This document shows positions 1,513-20,042 of a stretch of DNA of 20,042 nt, piece by piece (position 1 is the first letter of the stretch; every line of letters starts with the position of its first letter). The DNA is from Methanosarcinales archaeon (GTDB taxonomy: Archaea; Halobacteriota; Methanosarcinia; DSM-18856; Methermicoccaceae): the NCBI GenBank assembly GCA_003661015.1, contig QMVI01000005.1, positions 1-20,042 of the forward strand, given 5' to 3'. Made by a program: the position numbers and the translations under genes. A model generated the notes under the pieces. The model did not search any database and had not been told where the DNA came from. It saw only the letters and a program-made list of their open reading frames with translations.

Positions 1513-2829
1513 ATGAAGTGTGTAATGACGGTTGCAGGTTCTGATTCTGGGGGTGGTGCTGGGATACAAGCTGACTTGAAGACGTTTGGTGCTCTTGGAG
1601 TTCATGGTGTGAGTGTTGTAACTGCCATCACCTCACAGAACACGTTGGGCGTCCGTTCAATACATATTGTGCCTGTTGATGAAATCGAGTCTCAGTTTGA
1701 AGCAATCTTCGAAGACTTCAATGTTGAGTGGTGTAAAACAGGCATGCTTCCAAATGAGGAGACTATAAAGCTTGTTTGTGAAATACAGAAAAAGTATGGG
1801 TTGTCTCTGGTTGTTGACCCAGTTGTTTATGCGGAAAGTGGTGCGAAATTGACCAAATCAGCTGATGCATTGTGGAGGATTATGCAGAGATGCGTGGTTG
1901 CGACTCCAAACAAGATGGAGGCAGAGCTACTTTCAGGGGTCAGAATAGAATGCGAGGATGATGTTATTGAGGCGGGAGAGAGAATTGTTAAGAGGGGGTG
2001 TTCTGCTGTTGTGATAACGGGTGGTCATCTGGATGGCTCTGATTACTTGATTACATCTGATGAAGTTGAGGTGATAAGAGGGAAGTTGGTGGAAGGAGGA
2101 ACACACGGTGCTGGCTGTACTTTCTCTGCAGCCCTCACATCTTACTTATCGAGGGGATTTGACCTTCTGGAAGCATGCAAACTGGCAAAGGAATTTACAA
2201 AGTCTGCAATAATACACAGTACTCCTGTTGGAAGAGGTTCACATCCCGTTGACCAACTTCACGAGACAAGGGAATACTCAGAACGTTTTAAAGTCCTTTT
2301 GAATGTCAGGAAAGCGGTTGATATCATTGTCAGCACCCCCGAGTTTTCCGAGGTTATACCTGAGGTTGGCACAAATGTGGGCATGGGCATAATGGGGGCA
2401 AAAAGCGAGGAGGATGTTGCTGCTGTGAGCGGAAGGATTGTTCGTACTCTCTGTACGACATCTCTCACCCAGTAGCCAAACGCATGTGGTGATGTAGAGT
2501 TTGGGGCAAGTGGGCATGTTGCAAGAATAATACTCACCGCTCATTCCATATTTCCACACATAAGAGCTGCAATTAATATGAGGTATGGAGAGGATGTTAT
2601 CAGGGCATGTGAGATACTGGGTTTGAGGATAGGTAGTTTTTCGAGAGATGAAGAGCCGGAAGGTGTATCCACGATGGAGTGGGGAATTTCGACAGTGCTA
2701 TCCAAGGGAGAAGTCGATGTGATATACGATAAGGGAGCAGTAGGCAAGGAGCCCATGGTCAGGTTGATAGGAAAGGATGCAGTTGAGGTTGCACAGAGAG
2801 CTGTTGATATTGCAAGATTTATAAGTTAG
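1513..2829 (+). CDS. thiDN: Bifunctional ThiD-ThiN (HMP/HMP-P kinase fused to ThiN-type thiamine-phosphate synthase), with one in-frame TAG at 2473-2475
   Basis: ORF-track pieces 1513..2475 and 2578..2829 share a frame and are separated by a single TAG. Hand translation of 2476-2577 ([34 protein letters not shown]) has no other stop. The N-terminal half carries ThiD motifs ([32 protein letters not shown]). The C-terminal half carries ThiN-type motifs ([28 protein letters not shown]) on both sides of the TAG. The annotated end is itself a TAG (2827-2829); the next in-frame stop is TGA 2851-2853. Confidence 0.85.
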
Positions 2830-2847
2830 GAATTGGATAGAAATAAT

Positions 2848-3145
2848 GGGTGAGAGAGGAAGGGCGGCTTACGCACCCATGGGGTGTGAGGAAAGTCCCC
2901 CCTCCGTTTGGACGCACGAACGCCCGAAAGGGCGTAGGGCGAGAGCCCTGGCAATGGCACAGAAACGACACCGCCACGTATGAGTGCGATGATTCCGCAA
3001 GGATGAGGTCGTACGTGTGCGGATGAAACGGCAAATCCTCGTGGGTGCAAGCGGTGGATGAAGGCGGACGTCCAACCGCCTCCACCAATATGCGCTTAGC
3101 CAAATGCCGCCGAAACAGAAGGGGGCTTACTCTCCTCACTCACCC
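2848..3145 (+). ncRNA. rnpB: RNase P RNA (archaeal type A-like)
   Basis: The universally conserved GAGGAAAGUCC (CR-I) is present and pairs, as P4 (AAGUCCCCC / GGGGGCUU), with a 3' ACAGAAGGGGGCUUAC element (the CR-V-like ACAGAA..GGCUUA motif). P2 is GGCGGC (2863-2868) / GCCGCC (3106-3111). The P1 terminal helix pairs GGGUGAG.GAGGA (2848-2860) with UCUCC.CUCACCC (3131-3145). The region is GC-rich and structured, and its only ORFs (2819..3139, 2826..3050, 2869..3075) are composition artefacts. Ends are approximate, within a few nt. Confidence 0.9.
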
Positions 3146-4209
3146 TTTGCTTTCGACACTCCCGCCTCCTCAAATGTTTTCATTTCGGTGAGAATTTTAG
3201 CACTTGCCTCCACGATTGAGATTCCAAGCGCAGCACCTGTCCCCTCGCCGAGACGCATATTGAAATTGAATAGGGGATTGAGTCCAAGTTCATTCAGAAC
3301 CGCTGAATGTCCCGGTTCTGCCGATTTATGTGCTATAGTCAGGTAATTCTTGACTTCCGGATGCAATTTAGATGCAATCAAAGCCCCGACTCCGGAAATG
3401 AATCCATCCACTACGACCGGTACATGGTTAGCACATGCAGAAAGCACAACACCACATATGCCTCCTATCTCAAAACCACCAACCTTTGATAAAACATCTA
3501 TTGGGTCGGCGGGGTCTGGTTTGTGAAGCTCGATTGCATTTTCTATGGCTTCAATCTTTCTTTTTAGCTTTTCATCATCTATACCAGTTCCTCTCCCACA
3601 AACCTTCTACACGGGGAGTCCTGTGAATACCGCTGTGATGGCGGTGGAGGGTGATGTGTTCCCGATTCCCATATCCCCTGTTCCAACCACATCACATCCT
3701 CGTTTATAAATTTCCTCAAAAATCTCTATTCCAGCCTCTATAGAGCGTATGGCTTGTTTTCTTGTCATGGCAGGCTCTTTTTCCATATTCCTTGTTCCAT
3801 GTCCTATTTTTTTCACGATGAAGTCTTGACGAGATTCAGGGGGTGGTCTGATGTCGGATTTCACACCCATATCCACCACAATCACTTTTGCACCGACATG
3901 TCTTGCAAGAACATTTATCGCAGCTCCACCAGATAAAAAATTGTACACCATCTGGGCGGTAACATCTTGCGGGTATATACCAATACCACTCTCAACTATC
4001 CCATGGTCTCCCGCCATCGTGATTATGACCTTTGAGTCGATTCTTGGCATTGGATTTCGTGTTATGCCAGCGAGTTTGACCGACAGATCTTCAAGAAGCC
4101 CAAGGCTTCCAATGGGTTTTGTTAAATTGTCCTGCCTGTCCTTTGCCTTCTTCATCGCTTCTTCATCAAGTGGTTCGATTCTTTCAATAGTCCTTTCAAT
4201 GGTATCCAT
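3136..4209 (-). CDS. cobT: Nicotinate-nucleotide--dimethylbenzimidazole phosphoribosyltransferase (CobT), with one in-frame TAG at 3607-3609
   Basis: ORF-track pieces 3607..4209 and 3136..3447 are in the same frame. Hand translation across the gap reads ...[75 protein letters not shown]... with no other stop. CobT motifs lie on both sides ([13 protein letters not shown] upstream; [25 protein letters not shown] downstream). Total is 357 codons, a typical CobT length. Stop is TGA. Confidence 0.88.
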
Positions 4210-5945: not shown

Positions 5946-6529
5946 GGATAGTGGTTGGAATGACCGGAGCAAGCGGGATACAGATAGGATTGAAGATACT
6001 TGATGTGCTGAGCGAGGGAGGGGATGACATTGACATAGATCTGATACTCTCGAAACCAGCTCTCAGAATATTACAACTCGAGACTGACATGTTTCCAGAA
6101 GATGTGGTTGAAAAGGCTACGTTTGTGTGGGACGATTATGATATGGATGCTCCAGTAGCGAGCGGCTCCTGTCGATTTGATGGCATGGTTGTTGTACCGT
6201 GCAGTATGAAGACACTTGGAGAAATAGCATCAGGCATATCCCAGACGCTCATTTCAAGGGTTGCTGATGTATGTCTGAAAGAGAGAAGAAAACTCGTCCT
6301 CGTTCCGAGGGAGACACCTCTCAACGTCATACATCTGGAGAACATGTTGAAAGTTGCAAGGGCTGGAGCCATTGTGCTTCCAGCATGTCCTGCATATTAC
6401 ACAAGACCAAGGACTGCTGAGGATTGCATAGATTTCATAGCAGGCAGAGTTCTGGATATGCTTGGTGTCAAGCATTCTCTATACACAAGTTGGGAAGAGT
6501 TGAGAGAGGACGAACTCAGAGAAGGCTGA
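5942..6529 (+). CDS. ubiX: Flavin prenyltransferase UbiX (prenylated-FMN synthase)
   Basis: 195-aa ORF. Motifs: MRIVVGMTGASG N-terminus, VVVPCSMKTLGEIASG, and LKERRKLVLVPRETPL..IHLENM. These form the characteristic UbiX/Pad1 flavoprotein pattern. Confidence 0.88.
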   Translation: MRIVVGMTGASGIQIGLKILDVLSEGGDDIDIDLILSKPALRILQLETDMFPEDVVEKATFVWDDYDMDAPVASGSCRFDGMVVVPCSMKTLGEIASGISQTLISRVADVCLKERRKLVLVPRETPLNVIHLENMLKVARAGAIVLPACPAYYTRPRTAEDCIDFIAGRVLDMLGVKHSLYTSWEELREDELREG

Positions 6530-7673
6530 GTACCTCTTTCAGAATCTCTGAACTCTTTGGTCTGTCCTCATAGAGCTGCGGTATCTTAACAGTCTTTCCA
6601 TCGAGCCTTACAATCTCTCCACCTTCATCAAGTCCGAGCTTTGCAACCGGGAATGAATGGTGTGCGAGCTTTGTTGTGAGCGTTGGATGAGGCGACAGAG
6701 AGATTATTTTCGCATCGTTGCATGGAAGTTCGAATAGCACATCTCCACACAGGTCTATTATCAGGTCAGCTCCGCTTTTGTATATTGGTTCGGATTTTGT
6801 CCATTCGCCATCATATTTGATGGCATTTATGGAACCACTCCTTTCCATCATGAGTGTGCAAACCCCTCTTGAATTTGCGTTCAGGAATAGAGGTGAGAAT
6901 GAGAATGTAGTTTTCAGTTCAAGTGTCTCTTTCAACTCCAAAAAAGGTTTGAGCTCTTCATCCTTTACAGCCTCGTTTCCTATGATTACAACGCCATCCT
7001 CTGCCCTCTTTATTAGCCTTACAAGGTTTATTATCTCCTTTTGTTCAACATATTTTGTGGGTCTTGGAACACTCCCAGCTATCGCATCTGAGAGTATTGT
7101 GTAAAACTTGCTTATTTCAGCATACTCGACCTTCATATACTTGTTTACAACTCTGCCACACGATGATTGGTGCGCATCTATACACACAGTCTTCCTGTCT
7201 TTCTCCCATCCTTGTTGTCTTTTTTCTCCCCTTGGATAGTAAGAGTACATCGAAAGATGTCTTGGATGTGTGCTCAAAGGGTCACAAAAGAGGTATAGGA
7301 TAACATCTGCGTTGTCTTTTATCCAGTCAAGGCTAACTTCCCTCAATTCTCCTCGGAGTAATAGTTCCAGTACATGTCCGTGGTAGAGAGATGTCTCGTT
7401 ATCGACTCTTGCACCGACTTTTTCTGCTATATCAAGAGCATAACCAACGGCTTCCTGAGAGAGGTTTGATAGCCCATATATCAGAGGAGTAGATGCCTTA
7501 TCCAACTCCTGAGCAATCAGTTCGGCAACCTCCTCAACATCCAGCTCTTTCTTTAGATTTGCTTTGAGGTATTCAGTTCCTTTCCGACAGGCATTGAAGA
7601 TATCTGCCCCGTCTATCACCACGTCCTCACATGCGAGGGCACAACCCGTGCATACAGTAGTTATGGTACTCAT
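6516..7673 (-). CDS. Formylmethanofuran dehydrogenase subunit B (FwdB/FmdB)-like molybdopterin-oxidoreductase-family protein, divergent and orphan
   Basis: 385-aa ORF. It has an N-terminal Cys cluster (VCTGCALACED...NACRKG), then PLIYGLS, VGARVDNETSLYHG, NADVILYLFCDPLSTHPRH, and a C-terminal block (SLSPHPTLTTKLAHHSFPVAKLGLDEGGEIVRLDG), collinear with FwdB as I recall it. No fwdA/C/D genes are adjacent. Confidence 0.6.
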   Translation of the reverse strand: MSTITTVCTGCALACEDVVIDGADIFNACRKGTEYLKANLKKELDVEEVAELIAQELDKASTPLIYGLSNLSQEAVGYALDIAEKVGARVDNETSLYHGHVLELLLRGELREVSLDWIKDNADVILYLFCDPLSTHPRHLSMYSYYPRGEKRQQGWEKDRKTVCIDAHQSSCGRVVNKYMKVEYAEISKFYTILSDAIAGSVPRPTKYVEQKEIINLVRLIKRAEDGVVIIGNEAVKDEELKPFLELKETLELKTTFSFSPLFLNANSRGVCTLMMERSGSINAIKYDGEWTKSEPIYKSGADLIIDLCGDVLFELPCNDAKIISLSPHPTLTTKLAHHSFPVAKLGLDEGGEIVRLDGKTVKIPQLYEDRPKSSEILKEVLSLL

Positions 7674-9142: not shown

Positions 9143-10861
9143 TCATAACACATTTATCTTGGCGGGTGGTAATGTGATGATAATCCTTGTTCCCTCTCCC
9201 TCTTCCGAATGTATCAGTATGCTACCACCCAGAGACCTCACGATACCATACGAAACAGACAAACCAAGTCCAGTACCTTCACCAACCGGCTTTGTTGTGA
9301 AGAATGGCTCAAACACATGCGGCAGCACATCTTTTGGTATTCCTATCCCATTGTCCTCAATCTCGATGACAACCATGCCATCCTTTTCGTAAGTGTGTAT
9401 CTTTATTACCTTGTCCTGTGTCTCTTTATGATTCAGTGCCCATATTGAGTTCGATATTATGTTCAGAAAGACTTGCATGAGCTTCTCCCTTTCGCCCATC
9501 ACACTGCTTTTGGCATCGAGCATTTTTTCAACTTTTATTCCTCTCAGCTCATGGGCGAGGATTGTGAGAGTCTTTTCGATAACATCGTTGATATTCAGCT
9601 CATAAAATTCTCCTCCCCCTTTTCTTGAGAAGTCGAGAAGGTCTGAGACAATCTTCTTGATCCTCATTCCAGCCTCTTCGATCTCGCAGACAATTTCGTA
9701 GTGCTCGCTATCAGATGGCAGTTCGTCCTTCAATATCCAAGCATAGTTCAGTATTACCGTGAGCGGGTTGTTAATTTCGTGTGCAACTCCCCCAGCCAAC
9801 TGTCCAATTGATACAAGTCTCTCTGCATGGGCAAGCTGTGCTTCGAGTTTTTTTCTCTCTTCTTCAAGCTCTTTGATACGGGTTTTATCTAAGATAACCC
9901 CATCAACATGTTCGTTGATTTTTCTTCCCCGCTCTACAACATATTTCCCGTTGACAGTTCTGTACTCGGTTCTGTAAGGTTCCCCCTCCCGTATGTATTT
10001 CATCACGTTCTCTTTATCTTCGGGATGAATGAGTGTGAGATATGATTTTCCTATGAGTTCCGATGGTTCCAGTCCGAATAAGTTCTTGCTCTCATCACTC
10101 ATGTACTCGATTGTCAAGTTGTCATCCAGAAGTCTTCTGAAAACAACCCCCGGAATGTTTTGAACAAGCGTCTCAAATCTTTCCTTGGCTTTTTTAATTT
10201 CCTCTTCTGACTTCAGACGCTCTGTTATATCAACAAGACTTCCGAGAACAACTTTCTTTCCTCTGTATGTGGCTGATGCACCGTAAGCTTCAACCCACCT
10301 AACAGACCCGTCTTTTTTTACTAATCTGAACCTCAAAGGGGGCACATCCATCTTTCCTTCAAGCCTCTCCTTTATTCGATTCTTAACAATTTCTCTGTCT
10401 TCTGGATGCACCACTTCCAATAACGCATTTTTTCCAGTCAGCTCGTCTCTTTTGTATCCAAGTATTCTTGAAAACTTTGGATTCACATATACCAGCGTTC
10501 CATTCTCATCCACCATATACACACCATTTATTTCATTCTCGGTGAGAGTTCTGAACAATTCCTCTCTCTCTGCCAGAGCTTCTTTAGCGTCTTTGAAGTA
10601 TTTGAGCTCGTTCAGGATTACATCACACTCCTTTATCAGGGCAAGTGCAAATATCAGCATCCCAGTGCCCATCAGTATGCTCTCTGAAAGTTGGAGAATT
10701 ATGCTGTCTGATATCTCACTGACCACATTCACAAGTAAGCCGAGAGAAAACAGACCCCACCCTACGTTGACAAGGAATATTTTAAGTTTGGTGAGAAAGA
10801 AAAACGCAACTACTGAAGCACAGAATATTGCTATGTTGATTGCGATGAGCTCTGACATCAT
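9143..10861 (-). CDS. Membrane-anchored PAS/PAS sensor histidine kinase
   Basis: The N-terminal region is hydrophobic (about 3-4 TM segments). Two PAS-like modules follow (FRTLTENEINGVYMVD...; FETLVQNIPGVVFRR...), then an H-box (GVAHEINNPLTVI) and the HATPase N/G boxes (NIISNS...EDNGIGIP...GTGLGLS). The track ORF starts at 10915. I favour ATG 10861/10858 (MMSEL...) because a TATA-like ATTATATTG sits about 26 nt upstream and it avoids crowding the radA promoter. Confidence 0.85.
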   Translation of the reverse strand: MMSELIAINIAIFCASVVAFFFLTKLKIFLVNVGWGLFSLGLLVNVVSEISDSIILQLSESILMGTGMLIFALALIKECDVILNELKYFKDAKEALAEREELFRTLTENEINGVYMVDENGTLVYVNPKFSRILGYKRDELTGKNALLEVVHPEDREIVKNRIKERLEGKMDVPPLRFRLVKKDGSVRWVEAYGASATYRGKKVVLGSLVDITERLKSEEEIKKAKERFETLVQNIPGVVFRRLLDDNLTIEYMSDESKNLFGLEPSELIGKSYLTLIHPEDKENVMKYIREGEPYRTEYRTVNGKYVVERGRKINEHVDGVILDKTRIKELEEERKKLEAQLAHAERLVSIGQLAGGVAHEINNPLTVILNYAWILKDELPSDSEHYEIVCEIEEAGMRIKKIVSDLLDFSRKGGGEFYELNINDVIEKTLTILAHELRGIKVEKMLDAKSSVMGEREKLMQVFLNIISNSIWALNHKETQDKVIKIHTYEKDGMVVIEIEDNGIGIPKDVLPHVFEPFFTTKPVGEGTGLGLSVSYGIVRSLGGSILIHSEEGEGTRIIITLPPAKINVL

Positions 10862-13617: not shown

Positions 13618-14904
13618 TTAAATTATAACCATACCAGTCTTTGTGATTGCAACCTCCCTAGGGAATGGATCTATCTTACCCTTGCCCTTCAACACCCTTA
13701 TATTTCTCTTCCTTCCACCGTCCACATATACAATGTGTACGATATAGTCCATGTATTGAGATATGTTAACACCAGTTGCAGGTGGCATCTCATTCATCGA
13801 GATGTTTGCCAAGAACATTGCAGTTGCGCCAACTGCCTTTAGATGGCTTGACAATATACAGAGATATTGTATGAGCTCATCTCCTAGAACTCTTACAGGT
13901 AAATCAATTGAGTCGATTACAACTCTCGAGGGTTTTGTCTTCCACAGTATATCGATAATATCTTTGAGTATCATTTCTGGTGAGGAAAGAGGTACATCAT
14001 AGACTGAGAGGTCCTTTATCCCAGTCCCATCAATGCTCTTTAGGTCTCTTCTAATCTCTTCTGCACTTCTTTCAAGTAATATGAGGAGCACCTTTTCCCC
14101 TTTCTTAAGCCCATCTAGTAGGAAGTGGATTCCAAGTGTTGTTTTCCCACTTCCTGGCTGTCCACCTATGAATGTAATGCTCCCCTTTATAACTCCTCCA
14201 CCAACCATTACATCAAGCTTTTCTATACCGGTTGATACTAACTCGTCTGAAATAAGAGGAGGCTTGTCAGAGGGGGTAATAACATCAAAACCAGAGCGGG
14301 TGATTACATAGGGGAACCCCACCATCGAATGTTCTGAGCGTCTCATCTTGCGCACAAATAATCTTCTCCTTAGATAGCCATTTTCCATCTGTGAACTCAA
14401 CTCGATTACTGAGTCTGCCATGTACATTGCATCTGTTTCCTTGCCTTCAACTGTCATCAAAATCGTCATTCCCTCGAGGCCGAAAAGAATGTTTGACAAC
14501 TCTCTTCTTTTCCTCATCCTATCGAACGATAGAAGGAGAGTACTGACAGAGTCTATAACCGCTCTTTCAGCTCCCCAGCTTATGAGTTCTGAGACAATCG
14601 ATATCAGTCGTTCATCAAAATCTGGGTCGAGAGGTGGAATCTCGAAAATTCTTATTTTGTCATTTTCTTTAAGATTCCATCCATATGAAGCCATATCTTC
14701 AATAAATTTCTTTGTGCTCTGGCCAACAAGAACAATAGCACCTTTCTCATTTTTATTGCACCCTTCGAGTATAAACTGAGTCGCAAGTGTTGTCTTTCCA
14801 GAACCCGGTGTACCAAGAAGTATTGTTGTTGAGCCCTTTGGAATTCCACCCCCCATCACTCTATCAAGATTATAATTTCCAGAAGAAATCCTCTGGATGG
14901 ACAT
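13618..14904 (-). CDS. KaiC-like double-domain RecA-superfamily ATPase
   Basis: 428-aa ORF with two tandem RecA/KaiC-type domains, each with a Walker A (LLGTPGSGKTTLATQF and IGGQPGSGKTTLGIHF) and DS-type Walker B regions. Confidence 0.85.
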   Translation of the reverse strand: MSIQRISSGNYNLDRVMGGGIPKGSTTILLGTPGSGKTTLATQFILEGCNKNEKGAIVLVGQSTKKFIEDMASYGWNLKENDKIRIFEIPPLDPDFDERLISIVSELISWGAERAVIDSVSTLLLSFDRMRKRRELSNILFGLEGMTILMTVEGKETDAMYMADSVIELSSQMENGYLRRRLFVRKMRRSEHSMVGFPYVITRSGFDVITPSDKPPLISDELVSTGIEKLDVMVGGGVIKGSITFIGGQPGSGKTTLGIHFLLDGLKKGEKVLLILLERSAEEIRRDLKSIDGTGIKDLSVYDVPLSSPEMILKDIIDILWKTKPSRVVIDSIDLPVRVLGDELIQYLCILSSHLKAVGATAMFLANISMNEMPPATGVNISQYMDYIVHIVYVDGGRKRNIRVLKGKGKIDPFPREVAITKTGMVII

Positions 14905-18334: not shown

Positions 18335-19266
18335 TGATGACCTCCATGAGCCAGTGGTTCTGAGGAATTGTACGTAATCCACACAGATACATAGGGTATG
18401 ACCAGCATAGAAAACAGCAAGACACCGAGGATTATTGACTCGAGTTCAATTGGAGAAAGTACAGGATAGTATTCATATATGCCATAACCGAGAAATCTTG
18501 CAATTATTCCCACGAGGAGAGTTGAAAAAATAAATACGCTTACGAGTTTATCTGCATTGGAAAGTTTCAGTTCTTTATAGAATGTTCTTTTTTTGTTCTC
18601 TCCAAAAGCTCTTGCCTCCATCGCCTCTGCAATTTCAACACTTCTCTCGAGTGAGTTTGCCAGCAGAGGCACAAGCACAGGAAATCTGTTTTTTATTCTT
18701 TTGATTATTGAGCCTCTATCGAGTTCAAGTCCTCTTGTTCTCTGTACGTCTGTGATTGTCTCAACATCAGAAAGCAGAGTGGGTATGAATCTTGATGAGA
18801 GGGATACAATTAGCACAGATTTGTATGGCACCTTCATTTTTAACATCAACATGAGAATATCGTCTGGATGCACACTCACAGTTATGATTGCAAATGCAGA
18901 TAGGATAACAAGCAATCTAACACCCATCATGATACCATAGAAGAGTGCTTCAAGTGTTATGACCGGAGAACCAAAGAAAGGCAGGTCATATCCGAGACTG
19001 TACAAAATATGCTCACCATTGTGATTGAATGCGATGTTTAGCAGAACTATCACCGGAATGAAAAAAAGTCCGAACTTAACAAAGAATGACCACTCTTTGA
19101 TTATTTTTCCAAATACTGCTGGCGGTATTGTTGCAACAAAAAGCAATATCAAAACAACGGGATTGTCAAAAATAAGGCTCAGTATTAGGATTGTGATTGC
19201 CCATATTATCTTTGGCATTGCATTCATCCTGTGAATCGGCGTGTTTGCCTCTTTATAGACCATCAT
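18331..19266 (-). CDS. ecfT: ECF-transporter transmembrane T component (EcfT/CbiQ family)
   Basis: Polytopic membrane protein with the coupling-helix region (SSRFIPTLLSDVETITDVQRTRG...RSVEIAEAMEARAF), matching the Ala-Arg-Gly-type motifs of EcfT/CbiQ. The start is placed at ATG 19266 (MMVYKE...), overlapping the upstream TGA (ATGA). Confidence 0.85.
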   Translation of the reverse strand: MMVYKEANTPIHRMNAMPKIIWAITILILSLIFDNPVVLILLFVATIPPAVFGKIIKEWSFFVKFGLFFIPVIVLLNIAFNHNGEHILYSLGYDLPFFGSPVITLEALFYGIMMGVRLLVILSAFAIITVSVHPDDILMLMLKMKVPYKSVLIVSLSSRFIPTLLSDVETITDVQRTRGLELDRGSIIKRIKNRFPVLVPLLANSLERSVEIAEAMEARAFGENKKRTFYKELKLSNADKLVSVFIFSTLLVGIIARFLGYGIYEYYPVLSPIELESIILGVLLFSMLVIPYVSVWITYNSSEPLAHGGHQ

Positions 19267-19730
19267 GGTACTGGAATCACCTCTCCATTCACAACCACAC
19301 ACGCATACCTGTATCTTATTTCATCCGGGTTCAGAAGCACATTTACACCGCCCTCAACCTCCTCGGCAGTGGTACCAGCCACCACCATCACCATATTCTC
19401 ATTGGCAGCAGTTCCCTTTGGATTCCAAGGGTTGTTTACTGCAACTATAACACATCCATCATCGTATTCCCTTCCATTAACCGTCACAACCTTTCCATTC
19501 TCGATATATGCGTACAAATTGAGTCTCTGAGCTATGGAGAAGATATGGGATGCTGGCTCAAATGATGCATCCCCTATCAGTATCAGATTGTCTTTTTTCT
19601 TCTCATCATCCTTCAACTCATCCCATCTCTTTACCTTCACACTTGCCCCAGCACCTTCAAGATATTTCTTTATCTTCTCAGCATCATCATTGAATCCGTT
19701 TTGATAGACTATGATTGTATCTCTAACCAT
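19263..19730 (-). CDS. Hypothetical soluble protein/domain; either a separate 155-aa protein or the C-terminal domain of the DUF4430 protein if TAG 19737-19739 is decoded
   Basis: ORF MVRDTIIVYQNGFNDDAEKIKKYLEGAG...VVNGEVIPVP. I recognise no family. It is in the same frame as the upstream DUF4430 ORF, separated by TAG-AAC-GGC. Stop is TGA, overlapping the ecfT start. Confidence 0.6.
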   Translation of the reverse strand: MVRDTIIVYQNGFNDDAEKIKKYLEGAGASVKVKRWDELKDDEKKKDNLILIGDASFEPASHIFSIAQRLNLYAYIENGKVVTVNGREYDDGCVIVAVNNPWNPKGTAANENMVMVVAGTTAEEVEGGVNVLLNPDEIRYRYACVVVNGEVIPVP

Positions 19731-19736
19731 GCCGTT

Positions 19737-20042
19737 CTATCCATGCACGAAGGGCTCTGGATATGCACCTACCATCGCCACCCTTCCATAGGTCTCCCAT
19801 GCGTGATAATCCCATATCTCGAAATCCCCGGGGTGGAGTACGTACTGGGCTGCTCCTACCTCTGCAAAAAACCCGTTTATGGTGTAGAACCAATCCACCT
19901 TTTCACCCATCTTGAATAGGGATTCATGTCCGTTTATTGCCTCTACAAATCCACCCCCATAAGCTGTTTTAACAGATGCAACTTTTTTCAGGGCATCCAT
20001 TGCAGTGGTTTTACCTTCTTCTATCTCAACCTCTTTGTCGAG
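19737..20042 (-). CDS. DUF4430 (transcobalamin-like C-terminal domain) protein; N-terminus outside the window; the frame meets a TAG at 19737-19739
   Basis: Open frame from the window edge: LDKEVEIEEGKTTAMDALKKVASVKTAYGGGFVEAINGHES...DWFYTINGFFAEVGAAQYVLHPGDFEIWDY. This matches the DUF4430 pattern (t.a.d.L......G.fv..I.G......W.y.vNg....vga..y.l..GD.i.w.Y). Confidence 0.7.
   Translation of the reverse strand, partial: LDKEVEIEEGKTTAMDALKKVASVKTAYGGGFVEAINGHESLFKMGEKVDWFYTINGFFAEVGAAQYVLHPGDFEIWDYHAWETYGRVAMVGAYPEPFVHG

Follow-up and report, generated by a model that had tools for sequence, protein, structure and literature searches.

The cobT gene on the stretch of DNA analyzed here most likely yields a complete, working CobT that carries pyrrolysine where the protein tolerates change, in a clade in which TAG appears to stand for pyrrolysine (Code 34). 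The stretch, called the window throughout, is 20,042 nucleotides of contig QMVI01000005.1. Its source is an uncultured archaeon of the Methanosarcinales type, represented by a metagenome and forming a sister lineage of Methanomicrobia archaeon JdFR-19, and this clade appears to have dropped TAG as a terminator and to decode it as pyrrolysine ("Genetic Code 34"). A ribosome arriving at the UAG of cobT codon 201 would thus insert pyrrolysine from a Pyl-tRNA(CUA) charged by PylRS, with no downstream RNA signal involved, and translation would run on to the TGA at 3138..3136. The predicted product is a CobT of 357 residues; its pyrrolysine would lie four residues ahead of the invariant GRGTG loop, in a short, variable helix. 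Pyrrolysine as the inserted residue, pylTSBCD in the genome, and CobT activity are the most likely state of affairs, deduced here or carried over from the literature on JdFR-19. The cobT features are listed below.

3136..4209, minus strand: cobT, nicotinate-nucleotide--dimethylbenzimidazole phosphoribosyltransferase; 357 codons and a terminal TGA, with one TAG read as sense
4209..4207, minus strand: cobT ATG
3609..3607, minus strand (plus-strand CTA at 3607..3609): in-frame TAG of cobT, codon 201, putative pyrrolysine codon
3139..3606, minus strand: the 156 cobT codons 3' of the TAG, with the GRGTG, GGFEIGG, and LGEGTGA motifs
3445..3447, minus strand: GTG codon 255, start of the second cobT piece under the standard code (P0122, 103 amino acids)
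3138..3136, minus strand: terminal TGA of cobT

The first-pass annotation had reported an in-frame TAG in the middle of cobT, and translation confirmed it as codon 201 of 357, at 3607-3609, with 156 codons following; the nucleotide context that it gave (CCC GTG TAG AAG GTT) and the peptide context around the TAG are both exact. Under the standard code the frame is interrupted at codon 201, and it is open solely if TAG is a sense codon. Truncation would remove GRGTG and LGEGTGA, as had been claimed, since both lie 3' of the TAG; the same holds for GGFEIGG (GRGTGIDD, 205-212; GGFEIGG, 244-250; LGEGTGA, 320-326). The second piece was likewise correctly placed at a GTG 53 codons past the TAG (3447..3445, codon 255). 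When codon 201 is translated as X, the protein matches Pfam DBI_PRT (PF02277) in a single stretch over positions 1-329 of 329 (468 bits) and NCBIfam TIGR03160 (cobT_DBIPRT) over positions 1-334 of 334 (459 bits against a cut-off of 319). Every column found invariant in sets of 20 and 28 homologs is retained, including those of the motifs GRGTG, GGFEIGG, and RLGEGTGA, and the Glu of RLGEGTGA probably aligns with the catalytic base of the Salmonella enzyme. Among solved structures, those of Thermus thermophilus CobT come closest (PDB 1WX1 and 1J33; E = 5e-80). The TAG is the sole lesion in the gene, with no frameshift and no second stop in the 156 downstream codons.

The gene content of the window is archaeal (RNase P RNA, RadA, FtsZ, a KaiC-like protein, HerA, an FwdB-like protein, and an ECF transporter), and its proteins are in NCBI as RLG22845/52/59, locus tag DRN72_, under the name "MAG: Methanosarcinales archaeon." The window is syntenic with JdFR-19 contig MTMG01000014.1, at 93% nucleotide identity over 13.6 kb. 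The CobT proteins of the two are 96% identical, that of JdFR-19 (P0124) being an uninterrupted 357-residue protein in the same 90%-identity cluster as the N-terminal CobT fragment from the window. Codon-by-codon comparison places TCG (Ser) in JdFR-19 where the window has TAG at codon 201. A gene for a KaiC-like double ATPase (13618..14904, minus strand) has no counterpart on the JdFR-19 contig, which is otherwise syntenic. Between thiDN and cobT lies a complete archaeal RNase P RNA gene (2852..3141, plus strand; 210 bits), which overlaps the cobT stop codon by 6 nucleotides on the opposite strand; its identity to the JdFR-19 copy is 99.7%, versus about 93% for the flanking genes. The gene at 6516..7673 (minus strand) resembles formylmethanofuran dehydrogenase subunit B, scoring 189 bits against a cut-off of 328 with TIGR03129 and giving no Pfam match, and its predicted product is a divergent FwdB-like protein.

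The cobT TAG is kept in two further assemblies of the same lineage (99.8% identical). One of them (L001, ENA ERZ27227322) is 99.8% identical to the window over 5.4 kb and carries an identical cobT, TAG included. The other (L004, JGI 3300014913) is a 1.1-kb contig whose cobT has two substitutions, one synonymous and one Asp to Glu, and keeps the TAG. The 200-residue N-terminal CobT fragment is recorded from both. Because the TAG is found in three assemblies, we rejected a sequencing or assembly error as its origin.

The 156 codons after the TAG are still under strong purifying selection. Pairwise dN/dS between the window and JdFR-19, a value that mixes both lineages and would tell little about the window lineage if its TAG were very recent, is 0.042 after the cobT TAG (3 nonsynonymous differences of 23, the other 20 synonymous; binomial P = 3.5e-10 versus neutrality) and 0.095 before it (9 nonsynonymous of 34). 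The relaxed selection that the first-pass annotation had named as evidence for a pseudogene is thus not seen. Codons 202-253, which a restart at the GTG would skip, have a dN/dS of 0, with 0 nonsynonymous and 5 synonymous differences (P = 6e-4). We judged the GTG restart at codon 255 to be an annotation artifact, as the skipped 53 codons are conserved and hold GRGTG.

To see how TAG is used elsewhere, the window was re-read with TAA and TGA alone as stops. Two further genes with in-frame TAGs were found, together with one codon that is TAG in JdFR-19 and sense here.

1513..2853, plus strand: ThiD-ThiN fusion gene (thiDN), with TAGs at 2473..2475 and 2827..2829 and a TGA stop at 2851..2853
19263..20042, minus strand: DUF4430 gene, its 5' end beyond the window; TAG at 19739..19737
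9416..9418, minus strand: codon 500 of a histidine kinase gene (PAS/HisKA/HATPase), CAG here and TAG in JdFR-19 (L002 4856..4858)

Both thiDN TAGs stand at identical codons in the window and in JdFR-19. The ThiN domain (PF10120) spans the first of them in a single stretch (positions 1-163 of 165). ThiDN gives the cleanest selection result: at a pairwise dS with JdFR-19 of about 0.2, the ThiN domain after the first TAG, where the TAG is present in both lineages, has a dN/dS of 0.26 (11 nonsynonymous of 22; P = 0.004), and the presence of the TAG in both genomes together with this constraint downstream means that it is translated there. The second TAG is followed by seven codons (ELDRNNG) and then TGA. 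The nucleotides of this seven-codon tail are identical in the window and JdFR-19, and the tail abuts the RNase P RNA gene. The DUF4430 gene has 155 codons between its TAG and TGA, the downstream part giving no Pfam or NCBIfam match, and it may hold a third pyrrolysine site or else join two neighboring genes that share a frame. On the JdFR-19 side, the kinase (HATPase) domain after the TAG has a dN/dS of 0.11 (4 nonsynonymous of 14; P = 2e-4). Gene calling with the standard code cuts that histidine kinase into pieces of 479 and 77 amino acids. A geranylgeranyl reductase gene of JdFR-19 also has a TAG, at L002 20951..20953, between its FAD-binding and GGR_cat parts. In the window and in JdFR-19 alike, the in-frame stops are TAG every time, with no TAA, no TGA, and no frameshifts.

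TAG does not end any of the 17 other genes in the window, a small sample from one 20-kb contig, all of which end in TGA or TAA; the sole terminal-looking TAG is that of thiDN, which reads on for seven codons to TGA. The nearest other CobT sequences are 64 to 70% identical, one of them from an organism that NCBI names as Methermicoccaceae. At the nearest cobT outgroup loci (L170 and L172; GC content of 53 to 54%), TAG ends 16 of 43 genes, which is ordinary usage and differs from the window count of 0 of 17 (Fisher exact P = 0.0026). In view of these outgroups, the loss of TAG terminators seems to be limited to the clade of JdFR-19 and the window.

The pattern fits what has been described for JdFR-19, which encodes separate pylSn and pylSc genes and a tRNA-Pyl (Guo et al. 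2022). In Genetic Code 34, every TAG means pyrrolysine (Kivenson et al., bioRxiv 10.1101/2024.09.30.615893). According to that study, JdFR-19 is an outlier among Code 34 organisms, with TAG in 13% of its genes, 191 predicted pyrrolysine proteins, and up to four pyrrolysines per protein, and its clade has the highest internal TAG density reported. The same study found that the JdFR-19 PylRS/tRNA pair suppresses UAG in Escherichia coli. Its proteomic validation of Code 34 comes from two species other than JdFR-19, and pyrrolysine insertion in JdFR-19 itself is a genomic prediction. Kivenson et al. also describe pyrrolysine sites outside the methyltransferases as mostly singletons, restricted to one genome or genus, and the TAG/TCG difference in cobT fits this singleton pattern. 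The window resembles JdFR-19 in its syntenic locus, its thiDN TAGs, the lack of a PYLIS-like element and of local TAG terminators, and internal TAGs of housekeeping genes, flanked by homologous sequence on either side ("Category 1"). The TAGs of that category are those in cobT and thiDN in the window and in the histidine kinase and geranylgeranyl reductase genes in JdFR-19. On this one 20-kb contig there is no TAG terminator and there are no large out-of-frame read-through overlaps (no Category 4). The cobT TAG itself, unlike those shared with JdFR-19, is specific to the window lineage; JdFR-19 has TCG at this codon, so the site is absent from its 191 predicted pyrrolysine proteins. The literature searched contained no mention of pyrrolysine together with CobT.

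We searched for the pyrrolysine machinery of the clade in several ways. The window, which makes up the whole 20-kb contig, and related loci contain no tRNA detectable by ARAGORN. A PylSc of the JdFR-19 clade was not among the top 120 matches to Desulfitobacterium hafniense PylSc, all of which were bacterial. An exhaustive HMMER search against cluster representatives recovered some 25 full-length PylSc clusters, none of them from the clade, and cluster look-ups returned Acetohalobium and several bacterial clusters. The clade was also absent among the matches listed in a PylSc profile scan of JGI metagenomes. Two candidates were rejected. An unrelated archaeal contig (L085, 1802..13949) carries mtrEDCBAFGH followed by pylSc-pylB-pylC-pylD, with no tRNA found by ARAGORN; its PylSc (P0275) has its nearest relatives in Methanosuratincola (60%), a different archaeon. 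The other candidate (L125), the one contig from the Guaymas sample of interest, has a YraN-like neighbor and appears to be bacterial. RNA signals were sought as well. Predicted folds 3' of the cobT TAG, over 67 to 113 nucleotides, were no better than those of shuffled sequences (z = -1.23, +0.25, and +0.62), the same was true 3' of the thiDN and DUF4430 TAGs, and a permissive Rfam scan 3' of the TAGs gave no match near the gathering score. A PYLIS-like element after the TAG was rejected on these grounds.

Position 201 of CobT looks tolerant. Alignment to homologs, the comparison suggested in the first-pass annotation, showed the TAG column to be variable (A/E/R/K/S): among 121 homologs, it holds Ala in 54, Glu in 44, Arg in 12, Lys in 4, and Ser in 3, with single cases of Asn, Val, Gly, and His, and it ranks as the 56th most variable of 357 positions. 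T. thermophilus CobT (1WX1, 1J33) has Glu there. In an AlphaFold AF2 model of the JdFR-19 protein (pLDDT 92.3), residue 201 is part of a one-turn helix (200-203) directly ahead of the invariant G205-R-G-T-G209 loop, and a bulky lysine derivative at such a position is plausible. Residue 204 (3598..3600, minus strand), directly before GRGTG, is Cys in the window and JdFR-19 and Thr in 119 of 121 homologs.

The codon also suggests a history. The nearest outgroups have GAA or GAG (Glu) in the TAG column. A change from GAG to TCG takes two substitutions, and TAG is one of two possible intermediates. By parsimony, 2 steps suffice if the ancestor shared by JdFR-19 and the window lineage already had TAG, versus at least 3 for the alternatives; this modest argument suggests that the cobT TAG is older than the split from JdFR-19. 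The codon probably arose by a change from GAG to TAG and later became TCG (Ser) in JdFR-19. A more general account is tentative, and we hold it to be somewhat doubtful: the TAG would predate the split as an intermediate between Glu and Ser, and the pyrrolysine codons of the clade would be gained, kept for a long time, and lost again within core enzymes. A bolder version would have Pyl201, together with the clade-specific Thr204Cys change, alter CobT function.

Several other explanations were weighed against translation of codon 201 as pyrrolysine. The UAG could be decoded ambiguously, partly as pyrrolysine and partly as a stop through aRF1, to give full-length CobT plus a 200-residue fragment without activity. 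How much active CobT is made would then depend on the supply of Pyl-tRNA, and a regulatory effect could follow. There is precedent in Methanosarcina acetivorans, where UAG serves as both stop and pyrrolysine codon (Shalvarjian et al. 2025, PMC12626013), so that some of the cobT product may be truncated, and the terminal TAG of thiDN with its perfectly conserved seven-codon tail fits either reading. We nonetheless regard ambiguous decoding as unlikely, because no gene in the window ends in TAG, the TAGs stand in housekeeping enzymes where truncation would be useless, frequent termination would be costly at the internal TAG density of the JdFR-19 clade, and the sequence 3' of the TAGs showed no cis element able to shift the balance between the two readings. 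It is very improbable that cobT was inactivated by a nonsense change from TCG or GAG to TAG and that the organism relies on cobamide salvage or another enzyme. With the standard code the gene is indeed broken, its 200-residue product would lack the C-terminal motifs, the closest relative has a sense codon at 201, and the ECF-type transporter in the window (CbiQ and DUF4430 components) could in principle import corrinoids. A pseudogene of this kind, however, would have to retain 156 downstream codons free of further lesions at a dN/dS of 0.042, with the TAG fixed in three variants and placed before the JdFR-19 split by parsimony; the same codon would have to have disabled two other conserved genes as well, one of which has its TAGs at identical sites in JdFR-19, and TAG terminators are absent from the window.

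TAG might also be a sense codon for a standard amino acid, read by a suppressor tRNA or by near-cognate read-through. Such reassignments of TAG exist in other organisms, and where one sister genome has TAG the other can have a Ser (TCG) or Gln (CAG) codon. TCG and CAG are, however, single-base neighbors of TAG and are silent on the identity of the residue, no archaeal reassignment of this kind is reported in the literature, and JdFR-19 is reported to have PylSn, PylSc, and tRNA-Pyl, with a pair that decodes UAG in E. coli; we give this explanation only a slight chance. The least probable reading, with next to no chance of being right, is a split gene in which residues 1-200 and the 103-residue piece starting at GTG 255 assemble into an active enzyme. 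Gene callers that use the standard code annotate exactly these two pieces, but the 53 codons in between, with the invariant GRGTG, would be lost, codons 202-253 are conserved (0 nonsynonymous versus 5 synonymous differences), and none of 120 retrieved CobT homologs is divided in this way.

Translation of the TAG, most likely as pyrrolysine, therefore stands as the first-pass annotation had it, rather than a pseudogene, on the basis of the dN/dS of 0.042 after the TAG and the lack of any other lesion. The pyrrolysine reading in particular agrees with the in-frame TAGs in two more window genes, the lack of genes ending in TAG, and the machinery described for JdFR-19. Recoding specific to cobT does not hold up; given the other TAGs and the missing TAG ends, cobT is rather one case of a genome-wide code that has already been described. 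It is a new example of that phenomenon and no new mechanism.

Comparison with known pyrrolysine proteins places the case more closely. The methylamine methyltransferases MtmB, MtbB, and MttB also rely on TAG, presumably decoded by the same tRNA and synthetase. In those enzymes, unlike CobT with its variable column (A/E/R/K/S), pyrrolysine is catalytic and conserved across phyla, and mtmB has a PYLIS stem-loop after its TAG, whereas the sequence after the cobT TAG has no structure beyond that of shuffled controls. A nearer parallel is Thg1, the tRNA-His guanylyltransferase of Methanosarcina, an example of the neutral or near-neutral pyrrolysine sites outside these methyltransferases, which also has a single TAG at a nonconserved position of an ordinary enzyme, with no insertion element and with a standard residue at the site in close relatives. 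For Thg1, pyrrolysine was demonstrated experimentally; for cobT it is deduced. The density of such sites in Methanosarcina is far lower than the 3 in about 19 genes of the window. M. acetivorans resembles the window organism in encoding pyrrolysine, in belonging to the Methanosarcinales sensu lato, and in having in-frame TAGs in genes other than those for methyltransferases, and it differs in that TAG is still a terminator there, with long and short forms made (PMC12626013), whereas the window has no TAG-terminated gene.

For work on this clade, the practical consequence is that standard-code pipelines split cobT (200 and 103 amino acids) and thiDN (320 and 83 amino acids), so that cobamide and thiamine biosynthesis would be scored as broken; genomes of the clade need to have their genes called again with TAG as sense. 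With the window, the single lineage reported to have an unusually high density of pyrrolysine codons gains a second member, sampled independently. The TAG/TCG codon of cobT, the CAG/TAG codon of the histidine kinase gene, and the thiDN TAGs present in both genomes offer concrete sites for testing whether noncatalytic pyrrolysine is neutral. If the cobT TAG did serve as an intermediate between Glu and Ser, then Code 34 would open mutational paths that the standard code closes, and the two sister genomes would be a natural system for measuring how a 21st amino acid turns over and what it costs in fitness.
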